Part shown: one piece after another, positions 15,091-44,600 of the stretch
Layout: every line of letters starts with the position of its first letter
Numbering within the stretch: the stretch's first letter is position 1
From: Dirinaria sp. TL-2023a
Taxonomy: Eukaryota
Direction of reading: 5' to 3'
NCBI GenBank assembly: GCA_051941275.1
Contig: JAVEBF010000015.1
Location: forward strand, 1-55,934
Length of the DNA: 55,934 nt
Notes under the pieces: generated by a model
The model's input: the letters and a program-made list of their open reading frames with translations, nothing else
What the model was told of the DNA's origin: nothing
Database searches by the model: none
Program-made: the position numbers and the translations under genes

Positions 15091-15124
<34 letters not shown>

Positions 15125-17642: not shown

Positions 17643-19919
17643 TTATAGGATTATGAACCACTTCCCTGGCTGGGCAGCTGCCTGGTCAATCGCGCATTGG
17701 AAGCAGCAATCATTCACTCGAAGGAAGATTTGGCGATGCAGGTCAGGGTCATCCTCTATGACAGCCGTGAATGGAACCTGAGAGAGAGCTAGCCATCGTG
17801 CACCAATACTGTGAGCAGTAAGACAAATAAGGATGCGCTCTGCTGTCTCGGCAAGGTAGTTCCCAAAGCCTGCAATCGTCACACAACCCGAACGAAGTGT
17901 GATCTTCTGATGTTCCCGACTCCCGTGAGAGCAAGGCCTCGAGATTTGCGCCGACCAGAGACATTTTTGTAGACTTTTATAGCCAATCCGGTATATGGCT
18001 GCGGACCTATGTAACCGGATTCGAGCAGAAATGAGAAATACATCATCCCCCTCTCCACAATAAGGACTGTCGAAGGTAACTTTCTCGGAACAGCGAAGAG
18101 AGGCTTGCTGTCCACTTGATTCAGCTCTTTCAGGATCTGTGGAGAGGATAGTGGCGCTAGAAGTGACATCCCAGATGCCACTTTTCCAGATACCATCACG
18201 ACAAGGGGTCCCATTACCGATACGTAGCGAGCTCGCTTGCGTATAAGCAGGGTCAACGTCTCCGAAGGTTGAGATCCAGGCACTCCAGCCTCCATCGGAG
18301 ATCAAACAAACTCTGTCCCAGGGAAGGCTCCAAATGTAAGCTCGATGACTTATGATGGGCAGGGTCAAAGCTTGCAGCCAAGCTTCATCTTTGACGGAAA
18401 TGGCCTCCTTCCCATCCCACTCCTCGAGCTGTTGAACCAGTGGGTGGTGATACATACCGTTTAAGTCAAGTCCGGCGAACATGAGGCCTTCGCAGTCTTC
18501 TAGATTGGTAACGTGGGCCAGAGCAATCAGAAATATAGCAACTTTCCTCGCATACACACAAAGCTGGTTCCATTTATCTTCAATGACCCTCTTGCGTCCA
18601 GCTACTGGCAGATCATCTCGGACTGTGGCTGTCAGTGAGGGCGGCTGGAGCAGTTGCTCATCAAGTGCTTGAGACGAATATTGCGCAGCTTGATCCTCAA
18701 TTTCCCTTTGTTTGAGGCGATGGTCGTCAAAGAGGAATTTGGAAGCTTTGAGTAAGTGCTGCTCGTCCACGTTGTATGCTATTGCTGTTGATCTACTGTC
18801 ATTTCCATCATCCACCCTATCATCTTCGTCACTTATGTGTTTGACCAAGTGCTTGACGATGACTAAAGCAAAAGCAGAGGTGACGATCTTCATGTCTTCG
18901 ATAAGAGCCCGGCGATTCGGCTTAAGCAAGCAAGGGTCCCAGAGAAAGTCTGCGAAGAGAGCGTTACCCCAGCCTTTCGCAGGAGTTCTCGTGATTGACC
19001 CAATCAAAGCACAGCCTTCATCCGGCGCTGGCTTGATCGTTAAGAGGTTTTCCTTATCCGAATCAAGTATGGTGATAGATGCCTCGTCGTCAGCGGCAAC
19101 TTCTTCTATGATAACCTGGTCCATGTTTGAACCGCCAAATCGAACATTTTTGGTTGATGGCTTATTGTGGCCTCGAGACTTCACTAACACAGTCAGATTG
19201 AGGACGTGATGGGCCCATACAATTAGCGCAGCTGTTCCAGATTGAAGACTTTTGCCGACAGGAACTTGAATATGGATGAAACGATCGTTGGGTAAAGTCT
19301 GAACCATGGGAAACATGTCTAGAAGACCCTGTAATACGAAAGTTGGGAAGTCGACTGGAGCCGTATCAGCGCTGTGCCCTAAGGTATTCGAGACTGCGTT
19401 GAGCATCATGTTCCAATTGAAAGCTGATGTCTGCGATTCGCAAGCCCGCAGGACTCCTAAGATGCCCGTTCTGCCGGAGCTCGTGTGCAATCCTGATACC
19501 GAAGGGGCATCTGCTATTCGCTCGCGCAAAGCGTCCGCGATAGCGGTGGCGAGATAGTTAGTCTGAAATGTCCAAACCAACAATGAGAGTTGAACGACCA
19601 TAGAGAAATAATGTGACTCCTTGAAGGCACGGGCAACTGTAGGGCCTGGTCCACCTTGGAGCAGGATGCCATCTAGTAATGGGACACTGGAAGAGCTTTT
19701 CATAATGATAGTCTTAAAGGACGAAGTAAGAGCATCAGATATCCTGCATCGTCCAAAGATGTTGGCGAGATCTTCCTCAACTACTATATCTGAGCCAGAA
19801 TGGCTTAGATGCCTTGCTGTGTTCATTATTACATCACCCGCCTTATCTGCTGCCCACTTTACAGGCGGTATTAGTCGCGTTAGTTCCACAGTTAAGGCAA
19901 ACTGATTCGTAAACGCCAT
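17643..19919 (-). CDS. Uncharacterised fungal protein, ~758 aa, single exon
   Basis: Long uninterrupted ORF; first ATG at 19919 (MAFTNQFALTVELTRL). Ends CCFQCAIDQAAAQPGKWFIIL. No domain recognised. Confidence 0.75.
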   Translation of the reverse strand: MAFTNQFALTVELTRLIPPVKWAADKAGDVIMNTARHLSHSGSDIVVEEDLANIFGRCRISDALTSSFKTIIMKSSSSVPLLDGILLQGGPGPTVARAFKESHYFSMVVQLSLLVWTFQTNYLATAIADALRERIADAPSVSGLHTSSGRTGILGVLRACESQTSAFNWNMMLNAVSNTLGHSADTAPVDFPTFVLQGLLDMFPMVQTLPNDRFIHIQVPVGKSLQSGTAALIVWAHHVLNLTVLVKSRGHNKPSTKNVRFGGSNMDQVIIEEVAADDEASITILDSDKENLLTIKPAPDEGCALIGSITRTPAKGWGNALFADFLWDPCLLKPNRRALIEDMKIVTSAFALVIVKHLVKHISDEDDRVDDGNDSRSTAIAYNVDEQHLLKASKFLFDDHRLKQREIEDQAAQYSSQALDEQLLQPPSLTATVRDDLPVAGRKRVIEDKWNQLCVYARKVAIFLIALAHVTNLEDCEGLMFAGLDLNGMYHHPLVQQLEEWDGKEAISVKDEAWLQALTLPIISHRAYIWSLPWDRVCLISDGGWSAWISTFGDVDPAYTQASSLRIGNGTPCRDGIWKSGIWDVTSSATILSTDPERAESSGQQASLRCSEKVTFDSPYCGEGDDVFLISARIRLHRSAAIYRIGYKSLQKCLWSAQISRPCSHGSREHQKITLRSGCVTIAGFGNYLAETAERILICLTAHSIGARWLALSQVPFTAVIEDDPDLHRQIFLRVNDCCFQCAIDQAAAQPGKWFIIL

Positions 19920-21558
19920 TATGGGTCGTGGTCTCCGAAGCTCTTCATCAACGCGAAGAGGATTCCTAACAGCTGTGACGATTCGCAATATAAGAGCTCA
20001 AATTTGTAGCAGCATCGCCGATTTCAGCCTCAGCCTCGTCCGCGCAAAGAAGGCAACAACTTGGCATTGTTGATAAGAGACTTTTGCATAGTTAGCGGGA
20101 CGCTAACAAGCACACCATAGTGGCATCAGGCAACGCCCTAGGGAGCCTTATCTCTGACGTGACAGCGACAGTGGCCGCTTTAACATGGAAAGAACCGAGA
20201 CGCCGATAGCACAATCATTTCTTAGGTAGCTGCTACTATACTTATGAGCAGGAGCACACAAGTATGCAGATGACTAATGATAATGTATAATGTCGATTGC
20301 CATGCGTCAAATAAGATTCTCAGCTGCCGAAAGCCGATAAGCCTAATCTCAAGGAAAAATTCCAATTCATTGGCTACTTTCGACCAGTAGCCGTATGCCT
20401 TTAGATTAGCCAGCTTCCAGAATTTAGCGTCGAAGAAAGTGAAGGGTGTCTCTTACGCGTAATGTTCATTGAGACTGGGTTGCTCTCAAACCGCGTTCTT
20501 TGATCGTGACTAGTGTCAGCGTGTACGTATTCCTGCGCTGCCTTTAAATGTATGCATGTCTACACCGGCCATACAAGCTGCATCCTATTTGCTCGGAGTT
20601 TCGTAACATATTTGATCTTATACGACTTCTGGAGCCATCTGATATTGATGTTACAGACAGAGGAATCCATTATCGAGTTCGTACCCACTCCCTTCTTGAG
20701 GCTGCCAATTGGCTCCAATAACCTACCCTTCTCATCGGAGGTAATTCTCCAACGGGAGCTCCTTGATACCCTCTCGTACTGGCTGGGAGCGTTTGTGCTT
20801 CCCAGTATACCCAACGCAAAAACCAGACTTGAGGCGGTTGAACTAAATATTGCATGGGTAATCCTCTCGCTAAAAGATTGAGGTGAGCCTCTGGTAGGCC
20901 TGTCGCCCATGATGCGTACAGAAAAGCTAGTTTCGATCAATGACCGGCTATACAACTCTTGAAGGTGCCCGATCTCCACTGCTCAGGGAAGCTCCGCTCA
21001 CCTACATCTCATTGCGTCTTTCGTACCGACCTCGCAGTGCCTTGACGATTCGAGCTGGTCGCGCTAGAAAGGCTCCCGACTGCCACAGATAGCTACGTGA
21101 GTAGTAATTACGATATTATTGATAGATGTCAGAACCATCGGCACTGTCTGAAAAAGCGCATGTGGATTGTACTCGATCCCATGAAGTAGGGTTCCAGCTT
21201 CGGATTATCATCAAGTCAGAAATTATAGAAGTACACACAAAATTATACACTCTGAGTCTAGCTCTCGGGATTTAAACTGATAGTGCACAGTAACTACATG
21301 TAAATGGAGATGGTGTGGGCTGTGGGCGACCACCCACCTGGACGAGACCACTGGTACCTTACCTTAGTCACCTGACCATCAAGGTCTTGGCATGTATAGC
21401 GCTAGCTAGGGGCCTTTGGTGTACCTACCTAAGTAGCAAGTCCAAACAATCGTCGTAAATACTCCGACTTTTGATCATGATTATTGAAGTTCAATGAATT
21501 CTCGCATAGAAGAGCGATCGATCGCTCGGGTAAAGGAAAAAAAAACGCAAAAAAGCAC

Positions 21559-21641
21559 TGGACGATCGGGGAATCGAACCCCGGACCTCATCCATATTTT
21601 GAAATTGCTAAGGATGCATTATACCACTAAACCAATCGCCC
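21559..21641 (-). tRNA. tRNA-Ala (AGC) with 11-nt intron
   Basis: Reverse complement folds as GGGCGAT..CATCC-TTAGCA-[ATTTCAAAATA]-T-GGATG..GGTTCGATTCCCCG-ATCGTCC-A. It has the G3:U70 alanine identity pair, A and B boxes, and a downstream oligo-T terminator. Confidence 0.95.
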
Positions 21642-25552: not shown

Positions 25553-26940
25553 CTAGGGCCATGTACGCTGAATCCAGTAGCCAGGGTCGGATGGAGATAG
25601 ATTCCTACCCCAAAGTTCTGTCAAGGGGAGCAGTGTCGGTCGATTATCCTTGATGACGATGCAAGGAGAACCGGAGATAAGACATTCATGACATGCCATG
25701 TCTGGTTCGATCCAGTTACACGTGTTGTGCTTGAATTGTTGTACCAGGCAAGTGCCAGAGTCTTCGTGGTTTGGTTTGAGCCAAGTGAATTGGCCTTTCT
25801 TAGAACCAAGCCCGTCCAACTTCGTGACCCATTCCTTGATCTCACTTACAACCTCCTTGGGTAATTGAGACTGAGGGACGGGCGTGGTGCTACCCGGGAT
25901 TAAGGCTTGGACTTCCACGTTGCTGGAGCTCGAGAATCTCGCTAGCTTGTCAATCTCCTGTACTTCGGTAATATCGGCGGGTCTGGGTCGCTTCCGATCA
26001 GATTTGCTCAATGGAGTGGCCTTATCCAGTAAAAATTGGTTCATCTCCTCCAGAAGCTTGATACGATTCGTGTAAGACTGCTTTTCCAGCTGATGAGCAT
26101 TATATGCGTCGGCGAGCTGTTGCTCCAGCTTTGCAACTTCAACTGTTGGTCTTCCTTCTTCTTTCCCGACAGTTTGGGGCTCGTTCAGAGCATCATGAAG
26201 CTTTGAGAGCTCGCTGGCCATGACCTCTAACTCTTGGATGTCACCCTCGTGCTGCTTTTCGAGCGTGCGTATCTGGATGTCTTTGGTATTGACGGCTTGA
26301 CGACAATCCTCTTTTACTTGGGCCACGTATTTCTCAAAGTCTTCCTTCTGGTATCCCAACAGCCTGATGAAGCTGTCGGCGGCTTGGCGATACTCTTCTC
26401 TAGCTTGGGCCAGCTCTTTTTGGAGGCTGTTCTTTTCGTCTTGAAAGGTATTTGACCGCGTGGTGTGAGCGTTGATAGTCCTGACCGCTTCTTGATGCTT
26501 TTTTTGCACATGGTCCAGCTTTTTGTGAAGGTTGTTCTTCTCATCTTGAAGAGTGCCTATGTGCGTGGCGTGAGTCTCTTTTGCTTGGGCCAGCTCTTCG
26601 GTCAGCTCATCTTTTCGCTGTTGGAGTGCCGCTCGAGATATGGGCGAGGTATCGATTCGATAATGCAAGGCCTTGTTTTCTGCTGGCAAATCCTGAGACA
26701 GTAAATTGGCTTTTTTGTATAGTTGTACTGCTGAGTTGGACATACCTCGCTTTCTGCATCCTGTATGAGCACGATTTCCAGCAGGTTGTTGCGTCGCCGT
26801 TCCGTATTCTGGAGATCCTTGTCCATCCAATTCCCCGGGTTGTTGTTTCGAACAGCGGTGCCGTCTGTTGTATCCGAAACGACGGCGTTTCTATGGTCAA
26901 AACCCTGTCGGTCTGATGCTGAGGAAAATCTGCGCTCCAT
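25553..26940 (-). CDS. Coiled-coil protein with C-terminal Cys-rich domain (intron 26693-26745), ~444 aa
   Basis: ATG 26940 (MERRFSSAS). A GTATGT..CAG intron joins in frame to DLPAENKAL. Long heptad region, then C-x9-C-x-W...ACHEC...PC. Confidence 0.7.
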
Positions 26941-27799
26941 TGTGGGGGTATCAGAAGGGAGTAGAAATGGAACAATGTCAATGAATGTATGATTGGGCCC
27001 CCATGAACCGCAGGGTTTGGAGTAAAGACTGGTCCTGCGAACCCAAGCAAAAGAAGGAAAGAAGAGAAGAGGAAGGAAGGGCTGGCTCCAAGTAGTCAAT
27101 TTAAGCTTCGTCCACATGCGCTCTTGGGTACTCACTAGGTACTTCTCGACCAACGGTCATATCGATTAGAAGATTTGGTGCAATGTCATCAAATCTAAAC
27201 TCTTTCTTTACCGATAGCTGTCATGATGCTGAGATGGTGCGTGACCACACGGCACCACGGGATAGCGGTACTTAAGAAATGGATGAGAAACTTAATAAGG
27301 AGAGAGAGAAGGGAAGACACAAGATACAAATGAATGGACGGTCGTGACCACACGACACCACAATATTTGTACTGATCTGACTGGGTTTCTAACCTCAGCA
27401 AGGAGAGAAAGAAGAGGAAAGGAAGGAAAGTTGACTTGAAACGACCTTTCTAAGCTTCGACATCACGTGCCAATCGGATATTCACTACTCTACGACCGAG
27501 GTACATGTACATTTACTGCCGCTACAACACCTTCACTTTGCTACTTTCACTGTGTTATTGAACGATTTATTTATCTAAAAGTGGCGCATTCATGGTAAAC
27601 TCATCTATCCTCGCTCCGTTGAGATCATTTTGCTTTTTTTTTCTTGATTTCATTCCGTTAAAGCACAGAGTATGCCACGATTAATTATATCTATTTAGGT
27701 GATAAACCACCATCAAAATTATCCCTGCTCGTATTGAGTTGGTGAGAGCAGACTTGAAAGATGCATTGAAATCTTATCATTTCACATGACCTCGCTTCA

Positions 27800-30540
27800 C
27801 TTGGGCCTACATGTTGTCTCCTGCTCTGGATTCACATCTTAGAAAACTCTCTCATTTCTTCCAAATGTCTCTGCTTCTTTCCTCTTCTACTTTATATTAT
27901 CTATTGCTTTACTTGCTTTTTCTCTCTGCTACCCTTTGCGTGCATCTACACAACATCATAATAACTAAAAATAACTTCCAACATACCTGTTTTTCGTTTT
28001 CATATTCACATTACATGCCAGGGTCGGTATCAGTCAGGATCACTGGAAGCCGAAGTGGTATATTTTCATGAAGTCTCATCTTCGCTTAATGACTAACTTT
28101 ACCTGGAATGGAGAAGCAGAATCTTCAAAGACTCAGTCCAGACGTCAAGGCAAGATGCCTGAGGTGAGCTCTCTCGAACATGATCGCCGCTACGGTGCTC
28201 ACATTCAACAGTACGCCTACCCACCACCATGATTTCAGGATGCTACTGCTCCGGAGAAGGGGTTTCCTCGGTCGACAACATTGGCACCATGGGACGATGC
28301 GCCGCATCCTGAGAATCCATCCACCGAATGGCCAACAGTCAACTGGGACGATGCCCTCCTTCAACGACAGAGCAGCTTGCGCATTTTTCTGAACATGCCG
28401 AGCAGTTCGAAGAATGATAAAGCTTAATGATCAGATCAAGCGCCACAGGCAGCTCGCTGTCTTCAATCGTAGAGATACAGAATTCCATGAAATCGTATGT
28501 GACAAGCGTTGCTACATCGAAAGCTCTATGGGCCAATCAATCTTAGGCTGATCTCAGTCACATTTCCGAAATTCCAGACATGGAAATGTACATCATTTTC
28601 GAAGACCAACAAAGCTACCTCGAGGTTCTTATTAGATTGCCTCGGGAAGTGCATTCCGTAACGACGGCTCCGGAAAAAGAGACGCAGAAAAAGAGTGTTA
28701 GGTTTCATAGTTAATCTCTTCCACATCACAACGAACTTCAGTGGAGCAAGATTGACTCAAGAAATTTAAAAGTATTTCGCCAACTCTAGAGTCGTTTCCA
28801 TCGTGAGCGAAAATCGTCAACGTGATAACCTCTGAATCGTGTATATATATATTTCTTTCTCTCTCTCATATATATTTCAGCCATACTCTCGAAACTGCTT
28901 CTGTTAAAATCTTGTAAAATATCTTCAAAATCGAGAAATTTAACTGTTTTTTCACTAAACAACCATTGAATCTCCGATATTTTGCACAGATTCAAGGAGA
29001 TTATATACAATATACCTGGACGAAATTACCTTCTTTTCTACATGTATCTTTCCAGGGATCGTGGCCCAATTTTCAGTTCAAAAATGTATTCTTCATTCTC
29101 ATTGAAGACCAATTACAGCTGCTACCAATCTTCAAGAGCTCGAATTTCAAGGGACTTCAGAACCTTTTCATCGAACAATTGCCCACTTCACTTATGAAAC
29201 GTCTTTGGAGACGCGGCTCTCCAACCTACATGTTAACAGAACAGCAAAGGACTTTGTGCAGGGTTAGAGGAACTTTTCAATGAACTCTTCTATAACGGAA
29301 AAATAACCAATGACCAAAATATCGCGGTCGTTGATCGTTCACAAGCATAAAATGCTATTGCATGGAATCATGACAAGTACGAGGTTCACGATGGAACTCC
29401 TCATGTTTGTCTCAATACTCAAGACGGTGTTAAGATCACCTCAACTGATCCAAGTCGATACAATCTGCGCAAAGTTGCGGCTGTCGTTTTCGCGATTATG
29501 TTCAAAATCAATGATGGACTCTGAAAGCCATTCAAAATTTTCATCATCTCCCCTTACAGAGCTCAAAACAACGTCTATCGAAAATTTCTACGAAAGCTTA
29601 AATCTATACGAAGTATGCGTTGATACGATCGACAGCATGCAGAATCATGAAAATCATATATTATTTTTAACATCATTCTTGTCAAAACTCGACGAGCAAT
29701 TACAAATTCATGAAGAATCGACTCTGATGCAGATAATTCTACATCTAGATTCAGAGACAAGTTCCTCTTCACTTGTGACATGATGACACTGCAATCAAGC
29801 GAATCAAGCAGTAAACAGCTGCTCAAAATGATTTATAAGAAACGATGAATCGTCGAGACAACGAGACGAGAGAAAAACTATCAAGCATCTTAACGCTCTA
29901 TTCAAATCTTTCTTTAAAAATCGCGTGGCTGTCAATATCAATGACAAAAACTCCGAGAAAAGAATTCTCGATCTGACTTTGAAAAGGTTCGTAAATTTGT
30001 TAAAAAGCGAGAAACCATAAAAAAGCATTTTACTTGTCATAACTGCGACAAAAAGAATCACCGTACAAACACACGCAAGTATTTAAAGACTAAAAAAAAA
30101 ACCCGTTTTCGATGCGGATCATTTCAGCATCTTCAGAGCGAATACGATGCAAATCTATACAGTATCTCCTCAAACATTGAACCACCCATCTAAAAATTGC
30201 ACTGACTCAGACAAGCGGATTCTGCAGAGGATACGAACGGTATCAGGCTCATTCCAAGAATCGCCGCTTTGTGAAAAGACAGATTTAACGAAATGGCGAG
30301 TATTTCGTGCTTAAAACCAAGCTTAAAGCCAGAGCTAAGCCTTCGAATCCGAAACCCCATATGATCCCGCAACGACAAATACCCAGATACCGCAAGGATG
30401 GGAGAAAATGGAGATCCAAAGAGACGGGCTTCGCAGCTCCAACAACACTCGCTCGGGATATGATGGATGACGAGCGAAGGCTGGAAATGAACTCTGATTT
30501 GTCCCTTTGGCGTCGAAGGTCTTATATAAGACGGTGGTAA
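27800..30540 (+). pseudogene. Decayed SF1 UPF1/DNA2/NAM7-like (AAA_11/AAA_12) helicase with C-terminal CCHC zinc knuckles
   Basis: Ordered motif relics across frames: LPGMEK (~28099, cf. PPGTGK), ALSN (28168, cf. APSN), IYLDEI (29010), LIEDQLQLLP (29098, cf. LIGDxxQLPP), SLMKRL, MLTEQQR, IISPYRAQ (29543), TIDSMQNHE (29625, cf. TVDSFQGRE), SRFRD, CHNCDKKNH (30035), FRCGSFQH (~30106). Boundaries approximate. Confidence 0.75.
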
Positions 30541-32085
30541 GGGATATTAGTAGAGCTAGTGTGGAAGCCGATGGACAAGTTATTATTGGGGAAGGCAGTG
30601 CCGCATACCATTTCGGGCAATACGAAAACCATAGCGAGATCTTACAGCGGAGAAAATTCGAGAAATTGGGATGAGTACAGTGACGAAGACCATGAACGGT
30701 TTACGACCGCAAATGGTGGAAGCTGTTAAAAATCAAATCATTACCTCTTTTTCTACAAGTAACTTTTGCTTTGGCGTTTTTTTTAAATTAGGTATTTTGA
30801 ATCTCTGTGTCTATCGTGCTTTTTCGGAAGGAGTTTCAGATAGGATTTTTAGATAGTTGTATAGATAAGTATATCCCACTCCCATCAATGAGTATATCCC
30901 ATTCTCAATTTTATTCAGGGAGAGCTGTGGTCTCTTCTGATATCTCTGTCGTCTCGACGAATACCTGATATTTTTCCCAGCTAGATCTACGTCTGTCTAT
31001 TATTAGTGACTAGTGGTACAGCGGTGCCAGTAACACTTCTCTTTCTCTCCTTTTAACTCATTCGTTTGATCGTCCGTAGCAGCATAGAAGCAGTTCTCGC
31101 TCTTATAAGGTTTATCAACTTTAATGTGGAAGGAATTCATGATTCATCATCTTCTTCTTTAGATGACGTATGACACTTTCTTTAAAGTTCGGGGGGAAGT
31201 ATTGAGGAATGGATCATTTGAAGTTAGGGCGGAGAAGGGATTCTTCGCTGACACTATCCAAAGCAAAAAAAAAGACCACCGTGAATATAACATAGTGGAA
31301 TTTGAAATAGATCCACTGTCATTAGAATATCCCTTCTCATATTTTTTTCCATCTGGGAAGTTTTTGTTATATGACGCCGCAGATTTCATGACGTTGCTTT
31401 CTATACTCTATTAGGGTGGATTTTTTAAGCAAAAAGGTTTTCATGAACGGGATGATGGAGTTGATTTCTCGTGGTTGTGTCGTTGTGGGATGGATATATC
31501 GTTAACGATTAGAGGTTTTAGAGCGCTAGAGAAAACATGAGAGGGGAATATATAAATGAGGCGAGTAGCGAGAGGAAGAAGCATGGGATGTTTGTGTGGT
31601 GGCACTGAGAATCAGATCGTTAGCTAAGTGTTAAGTATTTAGATTCTATGTGTCAAATTGAAGCTAGGATTCTTTTCCCGCTTTTTGAGCGCAGATGCTT
31701 GAAAGCTTTTTTCGATAAGTTTTTGCAAAGAAATTGATCTTTGTCTTCTTTCCATGATATACGCCACTTCTAAGATGTTGATGAATACAGCAGTCGTGAT
31801 GGAATCGTTCGTTTGCACGATCAAAGAAAGAAGGAATTACTCAACGAATGGGTAAATCAAAGAGCAAGGATGTGTTCAAAGAGCGGGGGTCAGACATCTT
31901 GTATGAACGCTATCGATATGCATTTCACATTATCTGAGAGGTGGGAAAATTGGAAATATGGTTCTAGACTAAAGCAGTAAAGCTATCTATGTGCGACGTC
32001 ATCCGAAGACAAAGATCAGTGAATGAATCCGCGATTTCTATCGCGGGCTAAGTAGTAAGTACTTCCCTACTCCCCCTGAACGAAA

Positions 32086-35000
32086 TTACTCGTCATTTTC
32101 GGCTGCAGACGACTCCTCTGGACTTCCTTCTGAAGAAGAAGAGTCAAAGGACACATCACTGCCTGAAGTATCTTCTAACGTACAACTCCTTGGGTGCCTA
32201 AAAAGGCCCTTTTCGAACCAGTTGCTCTCGTCCACATCTTCGGCGGGATCTAACACATATATCGATTGCCGATTGTGATCTACGCGCCAGCCTGCTTTGA
32301 CTTCCCCATCCATCAGTGAGCACAGCGGGGTACGTTGCCATACCTCTTCTAACCGTTTTTCTAGCTGTAGCTTTAAATTGTTGAAGCTTCTCGCTGAGCC
32401 GTCTTCCCAAGACAATAAGCATTCCACGGCTTGCCCCAGATATACAGAGTCTTCATCATTCGGAACTGATACCTCAGCATAGAGGCCTGGTTTTCTGCTA
32501 CCCAGTTGCAGAAAAAGCACTTTTGTCGTAGTATCCTCTATAGACAATGTGGGTGGCCTAACGTCAGACTTAAATTAGCGATATGGCGTAAGTCAGTTAC
32601 GGGGAAGTGAAAATAGCAGACGGTGCACGAAAATTTGTGCAGAAAGGCGACAACGCAAATGCGAAGGACCATTCGAAAATCGAGAACTATAGCTGAACAG
32701 ACGAGGATTTTTGAAATTTGCTAGTGCGAGGCCAGAATGTTCACAGTATGTCTTCTAAAGAAGAGCAGTGGATAGGAAAAGTCACTATATCTTGTTGAAC
32801 CGCCAAAAAATGCAATATCTTGGGGGTCGGCATGCTTGCACTGGAACCTTTTGAGTTTAACTCGGAACATACATACCTCCACTGAGGTTTAGATACCGTA
32901 AGCTTATCAATTTGCTGCATGACGAAACAGCATAGCCTAACGGGACTCATTTCAACCAAGATGTAGTTTCCTCCTAGGAAGAAGTACTTCTGTGAAGAGT
33001 CGTAGCTTATCAACCAATCATCGGACGGAAACAATCTTAAGAGACATCGACCTTTTGAAGTAGTCAGGAGAGGAAGAAGCAGTTCAACAGTTTCAGCAGC
33101 GTGTCGTGCTAGCTGCTTGTCTCGCAGTAAACTCGATTGCAGTATCGAGAACAAAACCTCTGAGGCTGGATAATACAACTTAGTATTTATGCAGTGTCTG
33201 GTCTGAATATCTGCATTGTGTAGAACAAGCCAGGAGATCAATGACAGGTTTCTGGATGCATCGTCACGACCTAAACCGAGTGCTGCGCAGAGTACAAGAA
33301 AACCACGATAGTAAGGGCTAACATAATGCTTCTCATCCTCGATATAATGGCGAATGTATTCTTCACACCCAAAAAGAGCTACAGCACTCTCAAAATCTGC
33401 TACAGGACTGAATATATTTTGTGCCCAAAATTCGATGTACCCAATGTCAAGTTTGGGGCGCGCCGGTACGCTCAAGCATTGTCCAAGTCGCTTAAGGGTA
33501 ATGAGTAGTCCCTTATCTTGTTCAGGAGGGAGCTGTGCAATGCTGTCAATCATATAAATCATCCAATTACTCGTTAAAGTTGTCAGTCCTTGAATCGAGG
33601 CTGCTATTCTTGCTTTTATGACATTCTGGAGGCGCAATTCTGACGTGGTGTCAGGGTGACCAAGTAGCCTCTTTCCGTCTATAGTGTTCGTTAAGAAGTC
33701 TCGGGCTGTTCGATGCAACAACCTGATTTTGGTTTTATGGTAGATGAGGAGCGAATTATCGCCCTCCGGAGATTCTGCAGAATATCCTTCTTCAATCATC
33801 CCGACCTCTATTAGGCCCGCACATCTACTAGAAATCCAAGTTTTCAACCTCTCGCAGCCTATGGCAATATCGTCTGGGTCTTGCGGTACGAAATTTTGGA
33901 CGTATTTCTCTTGAAGAGGCTTATTGACTGCTACCAGCATCTCAAAAAGTGACATTGGGAAAAACTCCATCTAAGAGAAGTACGTAGCTGCCTCATGACG
34001 GTAACGTTGCTCGTGCCCGTTGAGACGGTTCCACATCTGGAGATAAAGTTGCTGCATCCCATCGGGCAAATCCTCTATCCGATCTAAGAGGTCCTTGAAG
34101 TCGTCCTCGTTTCTTATTCCTCTCATCAAGCTGCTAAGCGCATAATGCACCCAAAGGAACACACCATCAGCCTTCTGTGTCATAAAATATACAATTCTAT
34201 CAGACTGATATTCGCTGAGAGATTGCTGGTGGTCCTTTTCGCATACACGATGAAGCTCATCACGGATGCATATTTCCATATCATACGCCGTTAAGTCCTG
34301 TAACCGAATCTGGCTGTATTGCGATAAGCGGTTCACTATATAATTCTCAGGGCGGCTCGATACGCAGATTTTGATCTTGTCAGCTGTAGAGAACTCCTCG
34401 ATGAAGCCCAGTAGGTAATCTATATCATCGCGTTGATCAAACTCATCGAGGCCGTCGACGAAAATACAAATCGGACAGACCATCAAATCCGTCAACAGCG
34501 AAAGGACTTTTCGTAAATCGTCATCAGACCAATCGTGAGTGCTGCGCTTCATGAGCAGAGTCTCATCGCTATAGATGGACTTCTCAACGAGTTGCTCGTC
34601 GCCAATAACGATTTGCCGGACTAGAGAGCAGAGAAGCCCTTTTAGACTCCTCTGCATTCTGCCACCTGATAGCCAGAAAAAATAGTTTGCGACGAGAATA
34701 TCGGAGTCTGGATACCACTGCGCAAGTAGACGTTCTGTCCGCGAATCGTTGGCAAGGAACTTCATGAGCGTGCTTTTGCCCGATCCAGCTTTACCGTTAA
34801 TCCAGTAAATACGCTCGTCTCCTTGAAGCCATTTCACGAAACTATTCCAAGGGCGTTTGATGTCATCCTCGAACATCCACTCGAAAGTCTGGGGATGAGA
34901 TGATTTCACTTCATTCATACGGAGGTTGATTTCGTCGAACGTCAATGACGTGAGAAACTACTCGTACTGCTGCCGAGAAACGCGCTCTTTTCTGTCTTCG

Positions 35001-35732
35001 CTTCGGTACTGATCCTGCGATATTTTGAGATCTTTCATGGCTCTCTCAATCTGCTTTTCCGCATGCTGTCTTGTGTGAATATGTTGCTCCTCGTTAGCTT
35101 TTATGGCCTTCGCTAACTCAGCGGTGAGCTCATTTGAGACAGATATATGGCAAGACGCCAAGTTTGCGGACAGCTGAGAGAGCTGTTCTTGATGTTTTAG
35201 GTAGTGCTCCTCGGACTGGGATTCCAGGGTACCAAGCTCCTGCCTTGATATAAGGCGTCAGTGACCAGTTGCAAAGGCAGCATCTACAGACATGCCTAAT
35301 ATTAATCAAAACTTTTGAATCCAAGATTTTCTGATACTCGTCAAGTCTGTTCTTGAGTTTCTCGATCGTTCTTTTCTTTCTCTTCTTCAAGAAAAACTTA
35401 GACGTAGTTTCTCCAACCCCACCGGCAGCGCTTCTACGTAGCGACTGAAGCTCTGCTTGGAGCTCATTGGCAGTGTCACGACATTGGGAGCAAAGCTCTT
35501 CCAAGTCGATACCGCCTCTCAGAACTTTGGGGCCAGTGACAGGACTGCTCATAAGTGAGTCACTCAGAGCTGAATAACTTTTCTGGAGATGTTCGCTAGT
35601 GTATAGCAGTCGAGAATCTTCGATTGCGGCTCCCTGTGTGTATATTTGATGACATATAGTGACGGCTTTGACAGCGGCGTCAACAAGCTGCACAACGTTA
35701 GCGACCAGCCCGACAGCTGATAGCGGATCCAT
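32086..35732 (-). pseudogene. NACHT-domain NLR-like (STAND) gene with SesA/HeLo-like N-terminus, interrupted by two in-frame TAG codons
   Basis: MDPLSAVGLVANVVQLVD N-terminus; Walker A IYWINGKAGSGKSTLMK; Walker B CIFVDGLDE; KICVSSRP; ADGVFLWV; LLHRTARDFL. Inferred introns 35244-35295 (GC-AG) and 32558-32876. Stops at 34958-34960 and 33971-33973, with the frame otherwise preserved. Confidence 0.85.
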
Positions 35733-36297
35733 GATGAGCAAATCGGGGTGAATGCAATCATTACCTTTCGTCGATAAGCACTTTGCACAACCCGAAAGAG
35801 CCTGCTGTGCGATCAGGCTAGATGCCTACACAGAGGGAGTCGGAGTAAGTTTCTCTCATGGGGTTAGAGCCTTGGCACGCATATTCTTATCCCGTTATCC
35901 TCATGATATCTCATGTACATACTGTACAGCGCATCAGATCACTCTCAGCACACCACCCCTCCCTCTAATCTATCCAAGCAAAATCTCTTCTCAATCACGT
36001 ACTAGCCACCATATATGCCGAGCGGTTTAAGATAAACGACATATTCTCTCCCTCTAAAAATCGCTAAATTATTCAAGGCTATTTTTTTTTTCTCCCTGCC
36101 ACGCAAAACTCGGCGCCCAGGAGTTAAAGAACTGTCAAATCAGCCGTTTGAAATGTTACTTAACAATCAGCAATTCGGCATTGACAGTGGTGCTTCCATA
36201 GCGAATCAGTTCACCATCAGATCATTAAAACGGCTGTCCGTGATATTTGACACTACTCTGTCAAAGTAGAGAGTTGGTGGGCTTAATCTTGAAGTAT

Positions 36298-36466
36298 TTT
36301 TGAAGTGGGTGACCCTATGGAGGTCGCATTGGGTTCTATACTCCATACTTCTATGTGTATGTAGGTTGGTTATTTACATGGCAACCTTTATGTGCGGAGG
36401 TCTGTACCCCGATTGGGCCTAGCGCCCTCTCTGCCGGGTATGCCCTATGCCGCTCACTTTCCAACA
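36298..36466 (-). repeat. 3' LTR (169 bp)
   Basis: Reads TGTTGGAAAG...TTCAAAA on the minus strand; matches 38483-38648 with 4 substitutions and 2 small indels. Confidence 0.93.
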
Positions 36467-36475
36467 CTCCCACTC
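36467..36475 (-). promoter_or_regulatory. Polypurine tract of the LTR element
   Basis: GAGTGGGAG directly before the TG of the 3' LTR. Confidence 0.8.
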
Positions 36476-36740
36476 GGCATGCGCATATCTATTGACATGG
36501 CCTAACTCCCACTGCTTCTAGGCCCAATTGAACAACATTGCCGTGATCTAACTCTCACTGCTTCTAAGGTCCAATTGATCAGCAAGTCGTTTGAGGGTAT
36601 CCTTAGGCAACGGTAGAAATGAAAACGGTCGTTTGAAGCTTGCGATGCAGAGCAATTGCATTTGCTCCCCCGAGGCTGTATTCTCTGTTGTCGATAGAGT
36701 CTCTTGTATGCAGTGTTCGCGGCCTCTGCGGCTTCTTTTT

Positions 36741-36850
36741 CTTCTGCTCTCTATAGAGCTAGAAGAGGTGTACCTCGTCTGCGGCTCCTTCTTCTTCTTC
36801 TGCTCTCTATAGAGCTAGGAGAGGTGTACGTCGTCTGCGGCTTCTCCTCT
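36741..36850. repeat. ~56-bp tandem duplication inside the LTR element
   Basis: cttctgctctctatagagctag(a/g)agaggtgtac(c/g)tcgtctgcggct starts at 36741 and again at 36797. Confidence 0.8.
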
Positions 36851-37206
36851 TCTCTCACTCTCTCACTCTCCCCCTCGTATCTGTCGTGCGGGAATCGATC
36901 AAGTAGGGTAATAGGGATGACGATGAGATTGCCGTGTTAGACATAGACGAAACTCAATAAGAAAATAAAGAAGAAATATTCCTATAAACGGGAGCCGACG
37001 GTGAGGTTTGATTTGATCGTGTAAAGTATTAAAACCCCTGAGTTAAGAAGTCAAATAACAAGCATTAAAATAAACTCTCTCAGAAAAAGCTCCCCCACAA
37101 TGATATTCCCTCAAAAATTAGGGCGATGGGTGAGTAAAGAATAAAAGCCAAATGGCTCAGTCAAATGACTGTTTGACGACTTATAAGTATGTCGGGCAGG
37201 GCAGTT

Positions 37207-38310
37207 TCATAAGGCATGTGAGGGACTTGTCGACAATTGGCGTGAGATTTTCACCCTTTTTGCATGGTCATTGTACACACTGTTCCAAGCTCTTATTTGA
37301 CTGAATTGATAAGGTGCCGAAATATGTGATGTATGTCGTTTGCATGATGGGTTGGATTTGAAATGCATGCTGGCAGGTGCATGCGTAAACATTTTGGTTT
37401 GCCATTTTGCAGATGCAGGTGTAGGCAAGAAATATGAGGTAATACGCGTCTGTTGCGATGGTTTCTTGGTGCTTTTGAACATGCGAAACAGGTCGTCTAT
37501 AGTCATGTAGGTGATCGGCTTTTTGATAGGATTCTGATATGGTATGGCAGGTGAAGTTGGAGGTGTAGGTGGCGGTGTAGGAAGTGCAGGAGGTGCTTTG
37601 TGCGCTTCTAAGCTTTGTTGTAGTTGTTGCACTTGCTTGATAAGTTCTTTGTTATGTTCTTGCAACTGACTATTTGCCTGACGAAGTTCTTGAAGCTCTT
37701 TCTCATGCGATTTAGAGGTGGTTGATGTAGGAGAGGTATCGATGCTGGCGATGATGGAGAAGAATAATGTAGGCGTTAAAGCAATAGATGAGATGACTGC
37801 GAAAGATGTTTCTGATGCTGCATCTGACTTCTTTGCATGATGTTCTCGTACATGATCATGCAATTTGGTGTAGCTAGAAAGTTTAGCAGGGCAACGTCTG
37901 CATTTAAAGCCTTCTGCTGCTTTGATCAAACGAGTTTCTTTTTCTTGCTTTGCTTTCTGCTCTGCTTTCTTTTCGCGGGCTTTTTTCTGCTTTTCGCGAG
38001 CTTCTTTCTGCAAACTCTGCTCGTGTTGCTTTACCCATTGATCTGCGTATAGCTTTTGTGCTCTTAAGAACCAAACACATTTGCTTCCTCTTTTAAGATG
38101 ACTTTCGTACAGAGCTTTAGGATCTTTTCTCAGTCTTGCATAGTCCTCGACATGATGTTCTGAGGCTTCTGAAACGCATTTGCAAAGAAGAGGTGTGTAG
38201 GGCAGAAAGATACTAGATTCTTCTGAGAGTGACGTCGACGAGGTAATTGACATGGACGAAGAAGAGAATAACGAGGCGGCTTCGGACAAGAAAATTGAGG
38301 ATGAAGTCAT
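37207..38310 (-). CDS. LTR-element-borne C2H2 zinc-finger / coiled-coil protein, 367 aa from first ATG
   Basis: FKCRRCPAKLSSYTKLHDHVREHH (C-x2-C-x12-H-x4-H), K/E-rich and Q-rich coiled coils, Pro-rich linker, YMTIDDLFRMF segment. Same strand as the PBS and PPT. Confidence 0.75.
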   Translation of the reverse strand: MTSSSIFLSEAASLFSSSSMSITSSTSLSEESSIFLPYTPLLCKCVSEASEHHVEDYARLRKDPKALYESHLKRGSKCVWFLRAQKLYADQWVKQHEQSLQKEAREKQKKAREKKAEQKAKQEKETRLIKAAEGFKCRRCPAKLSSYTKLHDHVREHHAKKSDAASETSFAVISSIALTPTLFFSIIASIDTSPTSTTSKSHEKELQELRQANSQLQEHNKELIKQVQQLQQSLEAHKAPPALPTPPPTPPTSPAIPYQNPIKKPITYMTIDDLFRMFKSTKKPSQQTRITSYFLPTPASAKWQTKMFTHAPASMHFKSNPSCKRHTSHISAPYQFSQIRAWNSVYNDHAKRVKISRQLSTSPSHAL

Positions 38311-38470
38311 GTTGTAGATAGTATTTGAAGAAAGAATTTGCTGGTGCAATTGCTAGGTGCCTATGCTGGCGAGCTAGATGCTTTTCGAAGCTGGCGTCGT
38401 TGTCGCTGACAAGCTGAGTGTTACACAGTAACTAGGTGCCTTAGGAAGACAGCGATATAGCTGCTAACCC

Positions 38471-38482
38471 GGGCTCATAACC
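38471..38482 (-). promoter_or_regulatory. Primer-binding site, half-tRNA-iMet type
   Basis: GGTTATGAGCCC immediately after the 5' LTR; this is the PBS type of yeast Ty5 and Drosophila copia. Confidence 0.85.
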
Positions 38483-38648
38483 TTTTGAACTGGGTGACCC
38501 TATGGAGGTCGCATTGGTTCTATTCTGCATTCTTCTATGTGTATAGGTTGGTTATTTACATGGCAACCTTTATGTGCGGAGGTCTGTACCCCGATTGGGC
38601 CTAGCGCCCTCTCTGCCGGGTATGCCCTATGCCGCTCACTTTCCAACA
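38483..38648 (-). repeat. 5' LTR (166 bp)
   Basis: Partner of 36298-36466; followed by the PBS on the minus strand. Confidence 0.93.
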
Positions 38649-38990
38649 AGTATTAAGAATTTGGAGGCAGTAATAGGCGAAAGCGGGTCGGGGAGAGGCC
38701 GGTGTGCCACTGGAACAGGGTGGTGTGCCGGCTGCGATTTCCTGAATAAAGATCGCCTAAAGTACCCAAGATACGGAGTAGGTTGCGGAACAACTAACAG
38801 GTATTTAAGTACTTTCTCTAGGCAACGATAGTACTGATACTAGAAATCAATCATATTTATTAGGTTACGCCTAGATAACGCCTAACGCCAATGCCTACCC
38901 ACGGTTCACCTAATGGAAAAAGCCAGTAGAATCTTATCCCTACCAAGAGACCAGACACAGCTAGCAGCTGAGAGCCGTCGTATGCACCAG

Positions 38991-41602: not shown

Positions 41603-44600
41603 TCAACGAAGAGCGAACATCCTTTTAAAACCGGAGCCTACCTTGCCCAAGGCCCCGCCACTTCGCGCCGGACTTCTCTCTTCTCTCCACCTCCTCTCGC
41701 TTCCGCGGCTGCTGCCGCTTGCTTTCTCCTTCCGCCGCCTCTCCCTGCCATCTTTTTCGCTAGGCCCATCGCGCACCCTACTGCGCTCGGAATCCTCTTT
41801 CAGCCGCCTCCTTTCTTCTCTTCTTCTTTTCCTTGCTTCTTCTTCTTCTGCCTCCTCTTTCGCGTGCTGTTCCCGGACCCGACGGCGTTCTTCGCGTCTG
41901 GCTTGATGATCCGCTTCTGCCTTGTCAGTTCGAGTTTCATCTCTATGTCGGCGTTTATGGCCACTGTCTGTAGCGTGGCGAGTCCCGCGCGGCCGTTCTA
42001 TTTCGCGTCCGCCTTTGTCATTGATACGAAGGCCAATCTTGGTATCGCTCTCAGCTTTAAGCCCATCGAATAACTTCGGCCTTAAATTTTTATTGCTTGT
42101 ATCCTTAGAGCTCTTGCTTCGGCTGGCACTAGGTCTGCTCTCGGAGTGTTTGGACGAGCGTGCTTTTTTTTCTTTCATCATCTCTTCGAGGGTTTTGGCG
42201 GTCGAGCTGCTGACATTGCTATCCCGACGTTTCCGCTCGGGTCGCGGGCCTGCTTCCGAGGACTTGCTAGGGGACGCCTTCGTTGAATGCCTCCGTTCGC
42301 GCTCCCAGCCGGAGTGACGTCGGCGCTGCTTGGAGGACGTGGGCGATGGAGGTATTTCAGCACTAGGCTCCTCGGAGATTGGCGCAGTTTCGGGCTCTGG
42401 TAAAGACTCTTCAATTGGTGCGGCGGCTTCTTCTGGTACTTGGTCTGTGACAGGGGGTAAATTTTCAATGGGATCAGTCTTCTCTTCCATCGGGGTTTCA
42501 GGCGCTTTGTCTTCCACTACAGGAGGCTGCTCACTATTGGCCGCTTCTTCGACTGTATCTGCCTTGTCTGCGGCAGACGAGTCTTCGAAATTTTCAGGTA
42601 GCACAGCACCTTCGTTCTTCTCCAGCTTCTCGTCTGTATCGACAGGGATCGGGACTTCGACATTTTCTGATGGCCCGGCGTCTTCAACCTTCTCCAGCTT
42701 GTCGTCTGCATCGACAGCAGCAACATCACCGATACCCCCATCTTTATCCTCAGCCTTATCCTCAGCGAAAGCTTTATCCTCATCCTTAGATACTTCCCCA
42801 ACAGTCTCCTCAGCCAGATTCCCACCCGAATTTTCATCAGGTTGATCTGCCTGAGTTGTCTGCCCAGTAGGAGCGCTTTCATCTTTGGAATTTGTTTCTT
42901 CGCCTTGGGCTTTTTCGATCTCTCCATCTACTGCAGTCTGCTCTACGTTGTCTGACCCAGCCACTGCATCGTCGGTCACAGGGGGGCTGTCCTGCTTCTC
43001 TTCGGCCTTGTCCGTCTCTGCTGAGTCTACCGGTGCTGAGTCTGCAGGATTATTTTCAATACTTTCCTCCTGCGGCTGCTGTTTCTCTTCAGAAGTCTCA
43101 ACTTGCTCCGATACTTGTTCAGAACCCGTCTGCTCTAATACCGGTGCCGAGCTTGCAGGATTGTTGTCAGTCTTTTCCTCTTGCGGATCCTCTTTGTCTT
43201 GAGAAGCCTCGGCTTGCTCCGGTGCTGAATCTGCAGGCTTGTCTTCAAGAATACTTTCCTCTTGAGGATTCTCTTTCTCTTGAGAAGTCTCGACTTGCTC
43301 CGATACCGGCGCTGGACTTGCAGGATTGCCCTCAGTACTTTCCTCTTGCGGGTCCTCTTTCTCTTGAGACGCCTCTACTTGCTCCGGTGCCGAATCTGCA
43401 GGCTTGTCTTCAGTGCTTTCCTCTTGAGGGTTGTTTTCCTCTTGAGAAGTCTCGACTTGCTCCGGTGCTGAATCTGCAGTCTTGTCTTCAGTGCTTTCCT
43501 CTTGAGGGTTGTTCTCCTCTTGAGAAGTCTCGACTTGCTCCGGTGCTGAATCTGCAGTCTTGTCTTCAGTACTTTCCTCTTGAGGGTCCTGTTTCTCTTG
43601 AGAAGTCTCGACTTGCTCCGGTGCTTGTTCAGAAGCCGTCTGCTCTGATGTTGGAGCTGACTCTGCAGGATTGTCTTCAATACTTTCCTCGTGTGGTTGT
43701 TCCTTCTCTTGAGAAGTTTCGACCTGCTCCGATGCTTGTTCAGAAGTCGTCTGCTCTGATACGGGAACTAACTCTGCAGGATTGCCTTCAACACTTCCCT
43801 CTTGCGGTTGCTCTTTCTCTTGAGAAGCCTCGGACTGCTCGGCCGGCGGCGCCGTACCTGGTTCTTCTGGCTTTTCTGCTTTATCAAGATCGGGTTTGGG
43901 CTCCTCCTCAGAGCCAGCGGGAAGGCTTTCATTAACATCTGGCGGTGGCGCCTCTGGTGACTCTGGCTCTGTAGGGGCTGCGTCCGGTGGCGCTGCATCC
44001 GTTGAAGGAGCCTCTGATTGTTGTGTTGCAGTAGAGCTCTCGGCAGGAGGGTCAAGAATTGGCGGTGCTTCACTTGGTGGGTCAGGCGCCGCAGGCGGGA
44101 CTGGTGTTGAATCAACCACGGAGGGCTTTGATTCTTTGGTCTGCCCTGGTCCCGTTGCTTTTGTGTTCGTTCTGGCTTTTGATTTTTTATTTTTTTCCGC
44201 TTTCTTCTTGGGCGAATTTCCCTTTCCCCCTTTCGATTTCTTTGATTTACCTGATTTGGATTGAGCCGCTGGTAATGTCTGTGCTTCAGTGGTAGATACT
44301 GGCGCATCGGCATTTGCTTCTTCACACGGTTGCTCAGCTAGGGCTGAGTCAATGACTGGCGGCTCGCCCGGGTCAGCGGGAGCTATATCATCTTTCGGCT
44401 CAGCAGCTGGCTCGGCGATCTCAGTAGATGGCTGGTTTTCCGCCTAAAGATGATTTAGTATAATATTAAATCCAGATTTGATAACCAAGAATGAAAAAGC
44501 GTTAGAGAGCGAAAAATTGCAGAGATCAATTGCGGTCTTTGCATATTGTGAAAATACAAGCATGGGGAACCACTGGCGCTGCACCGTCTTCACTTTGCTG

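Follow-up and report, generated by a model that had tools for sequence, protein, structure and literature searches.

The stretch analyzed here, positions 1 to 55,934 of contig JAVEBF010000015.1 from Dirinaria sp. TL-2023a and referred to throughout as the window (55.9 kb), carries on its minus strand a 2,351-bp long terminal repeat (LTR) element whose single gene encodes a 367-residue protein with a C2H2 zinc finger. The two LTRs are 95.9% identical, differing by 4 substitutions and 2 small indels (blastn E 2.5e-73), and both begin with TGTTGG and end with TTCAAAA. An exact 5-bp target-site duplication (TSD), AGTAT, flanks the pair, for which the random expectation is ~1/1024 with the boundaries fixed. 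A primer-binding site (PBS), found once on the two strands of the window, immediately adjoins the 5′ LTR, and a polypurine tract (PPT)-like sequence of 8 purines and one pyrimidine immediately adjoins the 3′ LTR. The paired LTRs, the TSD and the PBS described in an earlier note on this DNA are borne out by these values; the PPT of that note is present where expected, but at 9 nt with one pyrimidine it is short and weak on its own. The parts of the element, including those of its open reading frame (ORF), are as follows (window coordinates, strand, description and basis).

36293-36297, unstranded: TSD AGTAT, 3′ side; the same 5-mer stands at 38649-38653
36298-36466, minus: 3′ LTR, 169 bp, TGTTGG...CTTCAAAA; 95.9% identical to 38483-38648
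36467-36475, minus: PPT-like GAGTGGGAG; read from the sequence, adjoins the 3′ LTR
36491-36566, unstranded: direct repeat of 46 nt, 83%, in the 3′ untranslated part; repeat finding
36566-36613, minus: 16-codon peptide PLPKDTLKRLADQLDL, possible remnant of a copia pol C-terminus as proposed in the earlier note; translation confirmed
36732-36843, unstranded: tandem duplication of 56 nt, 93%, in the 3′ untranslated part; repeat finding
37114-37206, minus: in-frame continuation past the TGA, NCPARHTYKSSNSHLTEPFGFYS, against NYPARHISKSSNSHLTEPFDFYA in P0001, the closest relative; global alignment with X at the stop
37207-38310, minus: sense ORF, 367 residues; sequence, Pfam, AlphaFold2 and family alignments
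37429-37452, minus: QTRITSYF, residues 287-294, resembling a PCNA-interacting peptide (PIP) box; pattern scan
37477-37509, minus: YMTIDDLFRMF, residues 268-278, short helix and family hallmark; alignment and AlphaFold2
37603-37713, minus: second long helix, residues 200-236, common to P0001 only; alignments and AlphaFold2
37837-37902, minus: C2H2 zinc finger, residues 137-158, the most conserved part of the family; alignments A1 and A2, Foldseek
37918-38076, minus: long K/E/Q-rich helix, residues 79-131, candidate coiled coil; AlphaFold2
38071-38184, minus: N-terminal C-x-C...H-x6-C motif, residues 43-80; hhalign to BIR-type N-termini
38471-38482, minus: PBS GGTTATGAGCCC; adjoins the 5′ LTR, unique in the window
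38483-38648, minus: 5′ LTR, 166 bp; LTR alignment
38649-38653, unstranded: TSD AGTAT, 5′ side; exact copy of the 3′-side pentamer

Inspection of the 2,016-bp interior reveals one long sense ORF, running from ATG to TGA. Against Pfam, this ORF returned only sub-threshold zinc-finger and coiled-coil matches, with no copia-type Gag (UBN2, Retrotran_gag_2 or Retrotran_gag_3) at E ≤ 1, and none of the 39 other stop-free segments of the interior (at least 30 residues, six frames) matched gag, protease, integrase, reverse transcriptase or RNase H at E ≤ 0.1, which agrees with the earlier description of an interior lacking gag and these enzymes. The 16-codon peptide PLPKDTLKRLADQLDL is followed by RSSES and a stop, in a frame reading ...FLPLPKDTLKRLADQLDLRSSES-stop, and the 88-residue stop-free segment that contains it has no Pfam match. 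The 46-nt repeat in the 3′ untranslated region duplicates the end of the frame holding this possible pol-like scrap. The GC content at third codon positions (GC3) of the ORF is 0.38, compared with 0.51-0.56 in four neighboring host ORFs.

The end signals give the element its provisional classification. The PBS 12-mer is identical to the 3′ end of oligo oPA1732, as given in the oligo table of a paper on yeast Met-tRNAiMet (PMC11230868). Assignment of the PBS to a tRNA is made via this yeast oligo, not via a tRNA-Met gene of the host. The oligo is presumably antisense to the tRNA, so we take the PBS to be complementary to the anticodon arm of the initiator tRNA-Met. For the Ty5 family, a preprint on yeast Ty5 elements describes a PBS complementary to a tRNAiMet half or anticodon stem-loop and LTR tips TGTTG...CAACA (10.1101/2025.04.25.647736). 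Placement in the Ty1/copia superfamily is a putative one, drawn from these cis features. The element is free of repeat-induced point (RIP) mutation (TA/AT 0.83; (CA+TG)/(AC+GT) 1.38). All 4 substitutions between the LTRs are transversions, 3 of them clustered within 10 nt, and RIP-type transitions number 0; the cluster may reflect a single event, e.g., a template switch between two RNAs or gene conversion. Within the window, blastn found neither a third LTR nor a second copy of the interior, and a family tblastn at relaxed E likewise found no second copy.

The protein is built, in order, from a degenerate BIR-like zinc motif, a long helix, the C2H2 finger, a second long helix, a Pro-rich linker, the YMTIDDLFRMF helix and QTRITSYF. 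An AlphaFold2 model generated from a 26-sequence alignment (mean predicted local distance difference test, pLDDT, 67.6) presents a small helical N-terminal part at residues 30-78 (pLDDT 75-89), followed by a 53-residue helix at residues 79-131 (pLDDT 88-95), a beta-beta-alpha finger at residues 134-158 and a disordered linker. The second long helix occupies residues 200-236, and a short helix over TIDDLFRMF at residues 271-279 precedes a disordered tail. The finger itself, CRRCPAKLSSYTKLHDHVREHH, fits both the C-x2-C-x12-H-x3-5-H pattern and, in the model, the beta-beta-alpha fold, with a sub-threshold match to Pfam zf-C2H2_4 (E 0.017; 16.2 bits vs a 27-bit cut-off). Foldseek gave no match for the ORF model at E ≤ 0.001 and no capsid fold; the finger alone was recognized, superposing on fingers of CTCF with a root-mean-square deviation of 0.5-0.8 Å over 26-29 columns. 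A sequence search of the PDB with the ORF returned zinc-finger matches only, and the Atlas comparison of the whole ORF returned only generic C2H2 clusters, with recognition below its mark. Sequence and model thus uphold the open sense ORF, the C2H2 finger and the YMTIDDLFRMF motif of the earlier note. The two coiled coils that it named correspond to the two long modeled helices and a sub-threshold Pfam coiled-coil match, and are better termed candidate coiled coils.

This ORF is no orphan cargo. HMMER, run exhaustively against 1.84 billion representatives, places it in a fungal family with 101 representatives at E ≤ 1e-3, 15 of them at E ≤ 1e-10; a near-profile search scored 4 matches. P0001 (419 residues) is the closest relative; the alignment spans the full length, and 244 of its 365 aligned positions are identical. 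P0001 extends ~30 residues past the TGA of the window ORF, at which it has Cys, and the next 24 codons of the window align with it in frame; the window ORF also has a 33-residue gap relative to P0001, covering the SWAxIAS segment of the family. Because of this gap and the TGA, the window copy appears slightly eroded, with start codon, finger and C-terminal motifs intact in both proteins. One conserved core runs through the family. It comprises a K/E/Q-rich helix, then AFACRRCPAKFPSNTKLHxHxxxHHAKK, a Pro/Ser/Thr-rich linker, KPYLTIDDLFRMFAGK and RQTRITSYFKP, often with a second, C-terminal C2H2. In alignments A1 and A2, C137, L150, H153 and H158 are invariant, and in the YLTIDDLFRMF-type (DLF) motif, which is present in 62 of the 103 sequences scanned, T270, D273, L274 and F278 are conserved.

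Several properties of the family point to repeated DNA. A number of members (e.g., P0023, P0035, P0037, P0043, P0094, P0095 and P0101) are rich in I/F/K/N/S, a composition that looks like translated RIP-mutated DNA. RIP targets repeated DNA in filamentous ascomycetes, and such a composition is what repeated DNA would be expected to show. The 10 homologs that were looked up are all nameless singleton clusters, and in 7 of them the longest contigs span 1.9-3.6 kb, a suggestive size at which short repeats assemble. Pol domains were detected by Pfam in 0 of 64 family proteins scanned, and no pol-fused homolog of at least 1,053 residues was found in a weak search whose candidates were preselected by word sharing. 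Genome contigs and viral contigs yielded no relative in a related-locus search and 0 matches to degenerate motif patterns.

Conservation in the C-terminal part extends to QTRITSYF, for which the family consensus is (S/P)(R/H)-Q-T-R-I-T-S-Y-F-K-P. Of the 62 members that bear the DLF motif, 45 have the pattern Q-x-x-[ILMV]-x-x-[FY]-[FY] at a distance of 10-52 residues behind it, compared with 0.8% of shuffled tails; most of the scanned sequences lacking the DLF motif are fragments. QTRITSYF fits what we take to be the PIP-box consensus, Q-x-x-[ILM]-x-x-[FY]-[FY]. PIP boxes typically lie in disordered regions, and in the model QTRITSYF falls in a low-pLDDT, presumably disordered stretch. The motif therefore resembles, and is put forward as, a putative PCNA-docking site. 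We know of no PIP box in LTR-element proteins, and the literature searched returned none.

A metagenome scan for relatives returned two loci, L001 (20.5 kb of a 275-kb contig) and L002 (a 4.06-kb contig), which are one orthologous locus in two assemblies because their flanks align at 97%. Both are RIP-like, with a GC content of 25-29% and frames full of stops. Inspection of this locus reveals direct repeats of ~195 bp, 83-84% identical (TGTTACGA...TTTCTAACA), with tips TGTTA...TAACA, an exact flanking 5-bp duplication (ATATT) and a purine run before the 3′ repeat. The tips could be the product of RIP transitions acting on TGTTG...CAACA. Between the repeats lies the family ORF, in sense and riddled with stops; it contains the C2H2 finger, YLTIDDLF and Q-x-x-I-x-x-Y-F, and reads CKCCSIKFASNTKLHAYIQEYYAKK ... 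YLTIDDLF(R/C)IF ... QKR(I/V)IIYF. In L002 the repeats start 2,194 bp apart; in L001, where 388 bp are deleted, they start 1,801 bp apart. In L002, a family tblastn at relaxed E gave no match upstream of the finger, and 82 segments of L001 contained no transposon domain in Pfam. Homologs of the window ORF thus do lie between LTRs at a second locus, and at least two fungi, whose LTRs are unrelated in sequence, contain a compact LTR-ORF-LTR unit too small to accommodate pol. L001 also carries a pair of outer direct repeats (2284-2508 and 13886-14110; 225 nt, 87% identical, 11.6 kb apart) enclosing the small element; these may represent the LTRs of a bigger element degraded by RIP, or else a different repeat present twice.

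At the N-terminus, three kinds of module occur in the family: a BIR domain, the Cys/His motif of the window type and a Gag-like lobe. BIR (PF00653) scores above the Pfam cut-off in P0028, P0033, P0069 and P0076. N-termini of the window type follow the form FLPWSPLLC-x-C/H ... LYxxH ... C-x-WF, and hhalign of 21 such N-termini to 9 of the BIR type gives a probability of 95%, across only 22 columns that cover the His...Cys part (window residues 65-86). With the BIR zinc site defined as C-x2-C-x16-H-x6-C in a ~70-residue fold, the window ORF has no BIR match in Pfam and retains C-x-C...H-x6-C; by motif and alignment, its N-terminus is probably a degenerate BIR remnant. In P0028, the BIR domain (residues 254-321) follows the C2H2 finger and a Gag-like segment stands in front, which indicates that modules have been shuffled within the family.

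The third kind of N-terminus is represented by P0002, which matches Pfam Retrotrans_gag (E 0.006) and Ty3_capsid (E 0.11) and whose residues 117-222 adopt a confidently modeled fold (pLDDT 80-94). When this lobe was compared with 48,161 PDB representatives in a scan independent of Foldseek, retroelement capsid-type domains filled all of the top 15 rows; the matches comprise dArc1 (Z 6.3), human and rat Arc, the Ty1 Gag-derived Drt2, PNMA2, foamy virus and PEG10, with copia capsid (Z 4.8), RSV, MOAP1 and MLV as further matches. The nearest named Atlas clusters of P0002 are Retrotrans_gag, DUF4939 and Ty3_capsid (0.90). Foldseek on the P0002 model gave no match at E ≤ 0.001, its best being dArc1 at E 1.5, and a sequence search of the PDB with A3, the profile of this third type, gave zinc-finger matches only. 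Each of these Gag lines is weak individually (Z < 8), and they agree with one another. The capsid-like lobe of P0002 sits just upstream of the common helix and C2H2 module, which thereby takes the place of a nucleocapsid behind a capsid; the reading that fits best is therefore a Gag-related family whose N-terminal modules are exchangeable. The term also applies to the window protein because its C-terminal two-thirds are homologous to proteins that bear the capsid lobe. The cargo of the earlier note is thus probably not a foreign nucleic-acid-binding gene.

Taken together, we read the element as a non-autonomous, Ty5/copia-primed LTR element of the TR-GAG type (a class of gag-only elements), whose single gene encodes a Gag-derived adaptor and is not a captured host gene, and as a member of a wider ascomycete family of such units; we give this reading a probability of about 0.6. 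The idea of a satellite retroelement is retained in it, on the strength of the cis parts, the lack of enzymes, the sense ORF, the recurrence of the layout at L001/L002 and the numerous relatives, and is amended in that the ORF is Gag-related and probably not foreign cargo. The analysis shows the anatomy, the family membership, a second element built alike and the capsid-like lobe of relatives; from there, we infer mobilization in trans, the identity of the helper and all biochemical activities of the protein. Protease, integrase, reverse transcriptase and RNase H would have been lost or never present, and one gene kept. Proteins of an autonomous helper of the Ty5/copia type would package an LTR-to-LTR transcript, reverse-transcribe it from a primer at the tRNAiMet-half PBS and integrate the product, leaving the 5-bp duplication. 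The element's own protein would bind nucleic acid through its finger, probably self-associate through its long helices and probably dock on PCNA or chromatin through its PIP-like and BIR-derived motifs. In doing so, it may serve in cis as a chaperone or tether, to the advantage of its own RNA or cDNA. Roles in anti-silencing or helper hijacking are speculation.

Several observations weigh against this reading. Only a single copy is seen in the window, and L001/L002, being one locus, supply just one independent second example. The end signals depart from expectation in a 3′ LTR tip of CAAAA rather than CAACA and a PPT of just 9 nt. Neither Pfam nor the AlphaFold2 model nor Foldseek shows a capsid domain in the window ORF, and the Gag signal of the relatives is significant in no single test; Pfam detects it in 1 of 8 proteins of the third type (P0002), with nothing at E ≤ 5 in the other 7. 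The missing 33-residue segment and a stop ~30 codons earlier than in P0001 could mean decay, LTRs diverged by ~4% could mean a full-length insertion that later lost its interior, and one relative, P0102, is annotated as an ordinary hypothetical "C2H2-type domain-containing" gene on a 63-kb contig of a metagenome-assembled genome of the lichen fungus Heterodermia speciosa.

These points feed three alternatives. If an autonomous LTR element with a C2H2 gag inserted here and its pol was deleted afterwards, the compact unit was never mobile and no satellite lineage exists. The divergence of the LTRs leaves time for such a deletion, and the possible scrap of a pol C-terminus just before the PPT, the tandem duplications in the 3′ part, the slight erosion of the ORF and the lone copy would all suit it. 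What argues mainly against a one-off internal deletion is that the same compact, pol-less layout recurs with its own TSD in a second fungus, at L001/L002; moreover, the 39 interior segments hold no pol remnant, the 64 family proteins scanned lack pol domains and the weak search for homologs of at least 1,053 residues found none. We regard this history as unlikely. A genuine LTR element with a non-functional ORF, open merely through the fairly young age of this copy, would explain the premature TGA and the 33-residue gap relative to P0001. Start codon, finger, DLF helix and PIP-like motif are nevertheless all intact, and P0001, 33% diverged, is open at full length with the same motifs, which is hard to achieve without constraint on the lineage; a dead relic is accordingly improbable.

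A cellular origin is very improbable. Here, a C2H2 gene of a host family would have been transduced into the element or flanked by LTRs by chance, as the annotation of P0102 and its 63-kb contig might suggest and as would befit BIR, C2H2 and PIP-like modules, the last by the presumed consensus, since these are typical of cellular chromatin and replication proteins. Set against it are the RIP-like composition of several members, which marks repeated DNA, the capsid-like lobes of some members, the presence of the same ORF type between LTRs in two fungi and a GC3 far below that of the neighboring genes. Returning to the satellite element with a Gag-derived adaptor, a broader version can be framed, which we offer tentatively and consider possible but doubtful. 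It would posit an undescribed lineage of miniature LTR elements in filamentous ascomycetes, lichen-forming species included, that carry only a Gag-derived adaptor in which the C2H2 finger replaces the nucleocapsid knuckle. This adaptor would have acquired a canonical PIP box and a BIR module of the histone-tail-reader type and would couple the RNA or cDNA of its element to PCNA and replicating chromatin, while the elements would parasitize Ty5/copia-type helpers for enzymes and capsid.

The surroundings of the element are fungal, with an NLR-like gene, ankyrin repeats, isocitrate lyase, an OTU protease and a major facilitator superfamily transporter in the window. The element sits between two minus-strand genes, and ~0.5 kb separates its 3′ LTR from the N-terminal ORF of the NLR-like gene, which follows downstream in the same orientation.

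32741-35825, minus: NLR-like gene; N-terminal ORF 35130-35825, NPHP3_N/NACHT 33971-34957, DUF7791 32741-33970

The LTR could act on the promoter or regulation of this gene, for which its position might matter. No autonomous retroelement was detectable in the window, as judged by Pfam on 49 six-frame segments (at least 60 residues) of its lower-GC parts and on 5 unassigned ORFs. The lower-GC stretches (35-44%) at 14001-17000 and 27001-32000 contain no transposon domain. Long stop-free frames at 17643-19997, 41603-44443 and 25553-26890, all on the minus strand and encoding 784, 946 and 445 residues, respectively, match no Pfam family at E ≤ 0.001. The sole tRNA in the window is a tRNA-Arg (CCT) at 21559-21641 on the minus strand.

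The evolution of parasites of parasites can be followed in non-autonomous LTR elements with a retained gene, which, in the literature searched, are described for plants only. A fungal family whose protein combines a C2H2 finger with a strongly conserved PCNA-type docking motif, in place of a classical Gag, would offer a testable handle on the link between LTR-element cDNA or particles and replication or chromatin. Such a family would also explain otherwise unannotated "C2H2-type domain-containing" hypothetical proteins of fungal and lichen genomes, and repeat annotation would gain, as such units are easily miscalled as genes.

Comparison with known systems sets the element apart from each of them in some respect. 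With Ty5/copia elements it shares a PBS for a tRNA-Met anticodon-arm half (matched via the yeast oligo), the TGTTG tip, a 5-bp TSD and short LTRs of ~170 bp. In contrast to them, it has no UBN2 Gag, protease, integrase, reverse transcriptase or RNase H, and its 3′ LTR tip is CAAAA, not CAACA; the two hallmarks of the Ty1/copia group, a protease-integrase-reverse transcriptase-RNase H pol with an RVT_2-type reverse transcriptase and a copia-type Gag with a CCHC knuckle, are both absent. Terminal-repeat retrotransposons in miniature (TRIM) and large retrotransposon derivatives (LARD) resemble it in their paired LTRs, PBS, PPT (here a PPT-like tract), lack of enzymes and dependence on a helper (here a presumed one), but are described as non-coding, whereas the element here keeps a conserved 367-residue ORF.

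More distant systems offer functional parallels. LINE-1 combines, in ORF1p, a coiled-coil RNA chaperone, to which the long helices and nucleic-acid-binding module may be likened, with a PIP box in ORF2p that binds PCNA, as stated in PMC10830420. LINE-1 is nevertheless of the non-LTR class and unrelated in sequence, and PCNA docking is here predicted from a motif. Gag-derived tethers and restriction factors include MLV p12, the chromatin-binding site of foamy-virus Gag, Ty1 p22 and Drt2, the last also being among the fold matches of the P0002 lobe. In these, parts of Gag act outside capsid formation, in chromatin tethering or in interference with helper capsids; the likeness is a functional analogy only. 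If the broader proposal above is true, the family would be to LTR elements what the ORF2p-PCNA link is to LINE-1, and would likewise be a counterpart of the Gag-derived chromatin tethers. The literature searched held nothing relevant on fungal gag-only or C2H2 LTR elements or on a link between BIR and retrotransposons; a DUF3505/C2H2 fragment in a ToxB preprint proved unrelated.

The nearest parallel is found in plants, where TR-GAG elements are an already described class of gag-only, non-autonomous LTR elements, according to PMC4350172. Like them, the element described here is short (<4 kb), has LTRs, PBS and TSD along with a PPT-like tract, encodes a single Gag-related ORF of ~400 residues without pol and would be mobilized in trans. 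In that account, the ORFs of TR-GAG elements contain the UBN2 Gag domain of copia together with a C2HC knuckle, whereas the window ORF has no detectable capsid domain or otherwise recognizable GAG domain and instead combines a C2H2 finger with a BIR-like remnant and a motif resembling a PIP box. The host also differs, fungi being mentioned 0 times in that paper. As a short LTR element with a single ORF and without pol, it comes closest, among known kinds, to the plant TR-GAG class, encountered here in a fungus and with a C2H2/PIP-like protein.

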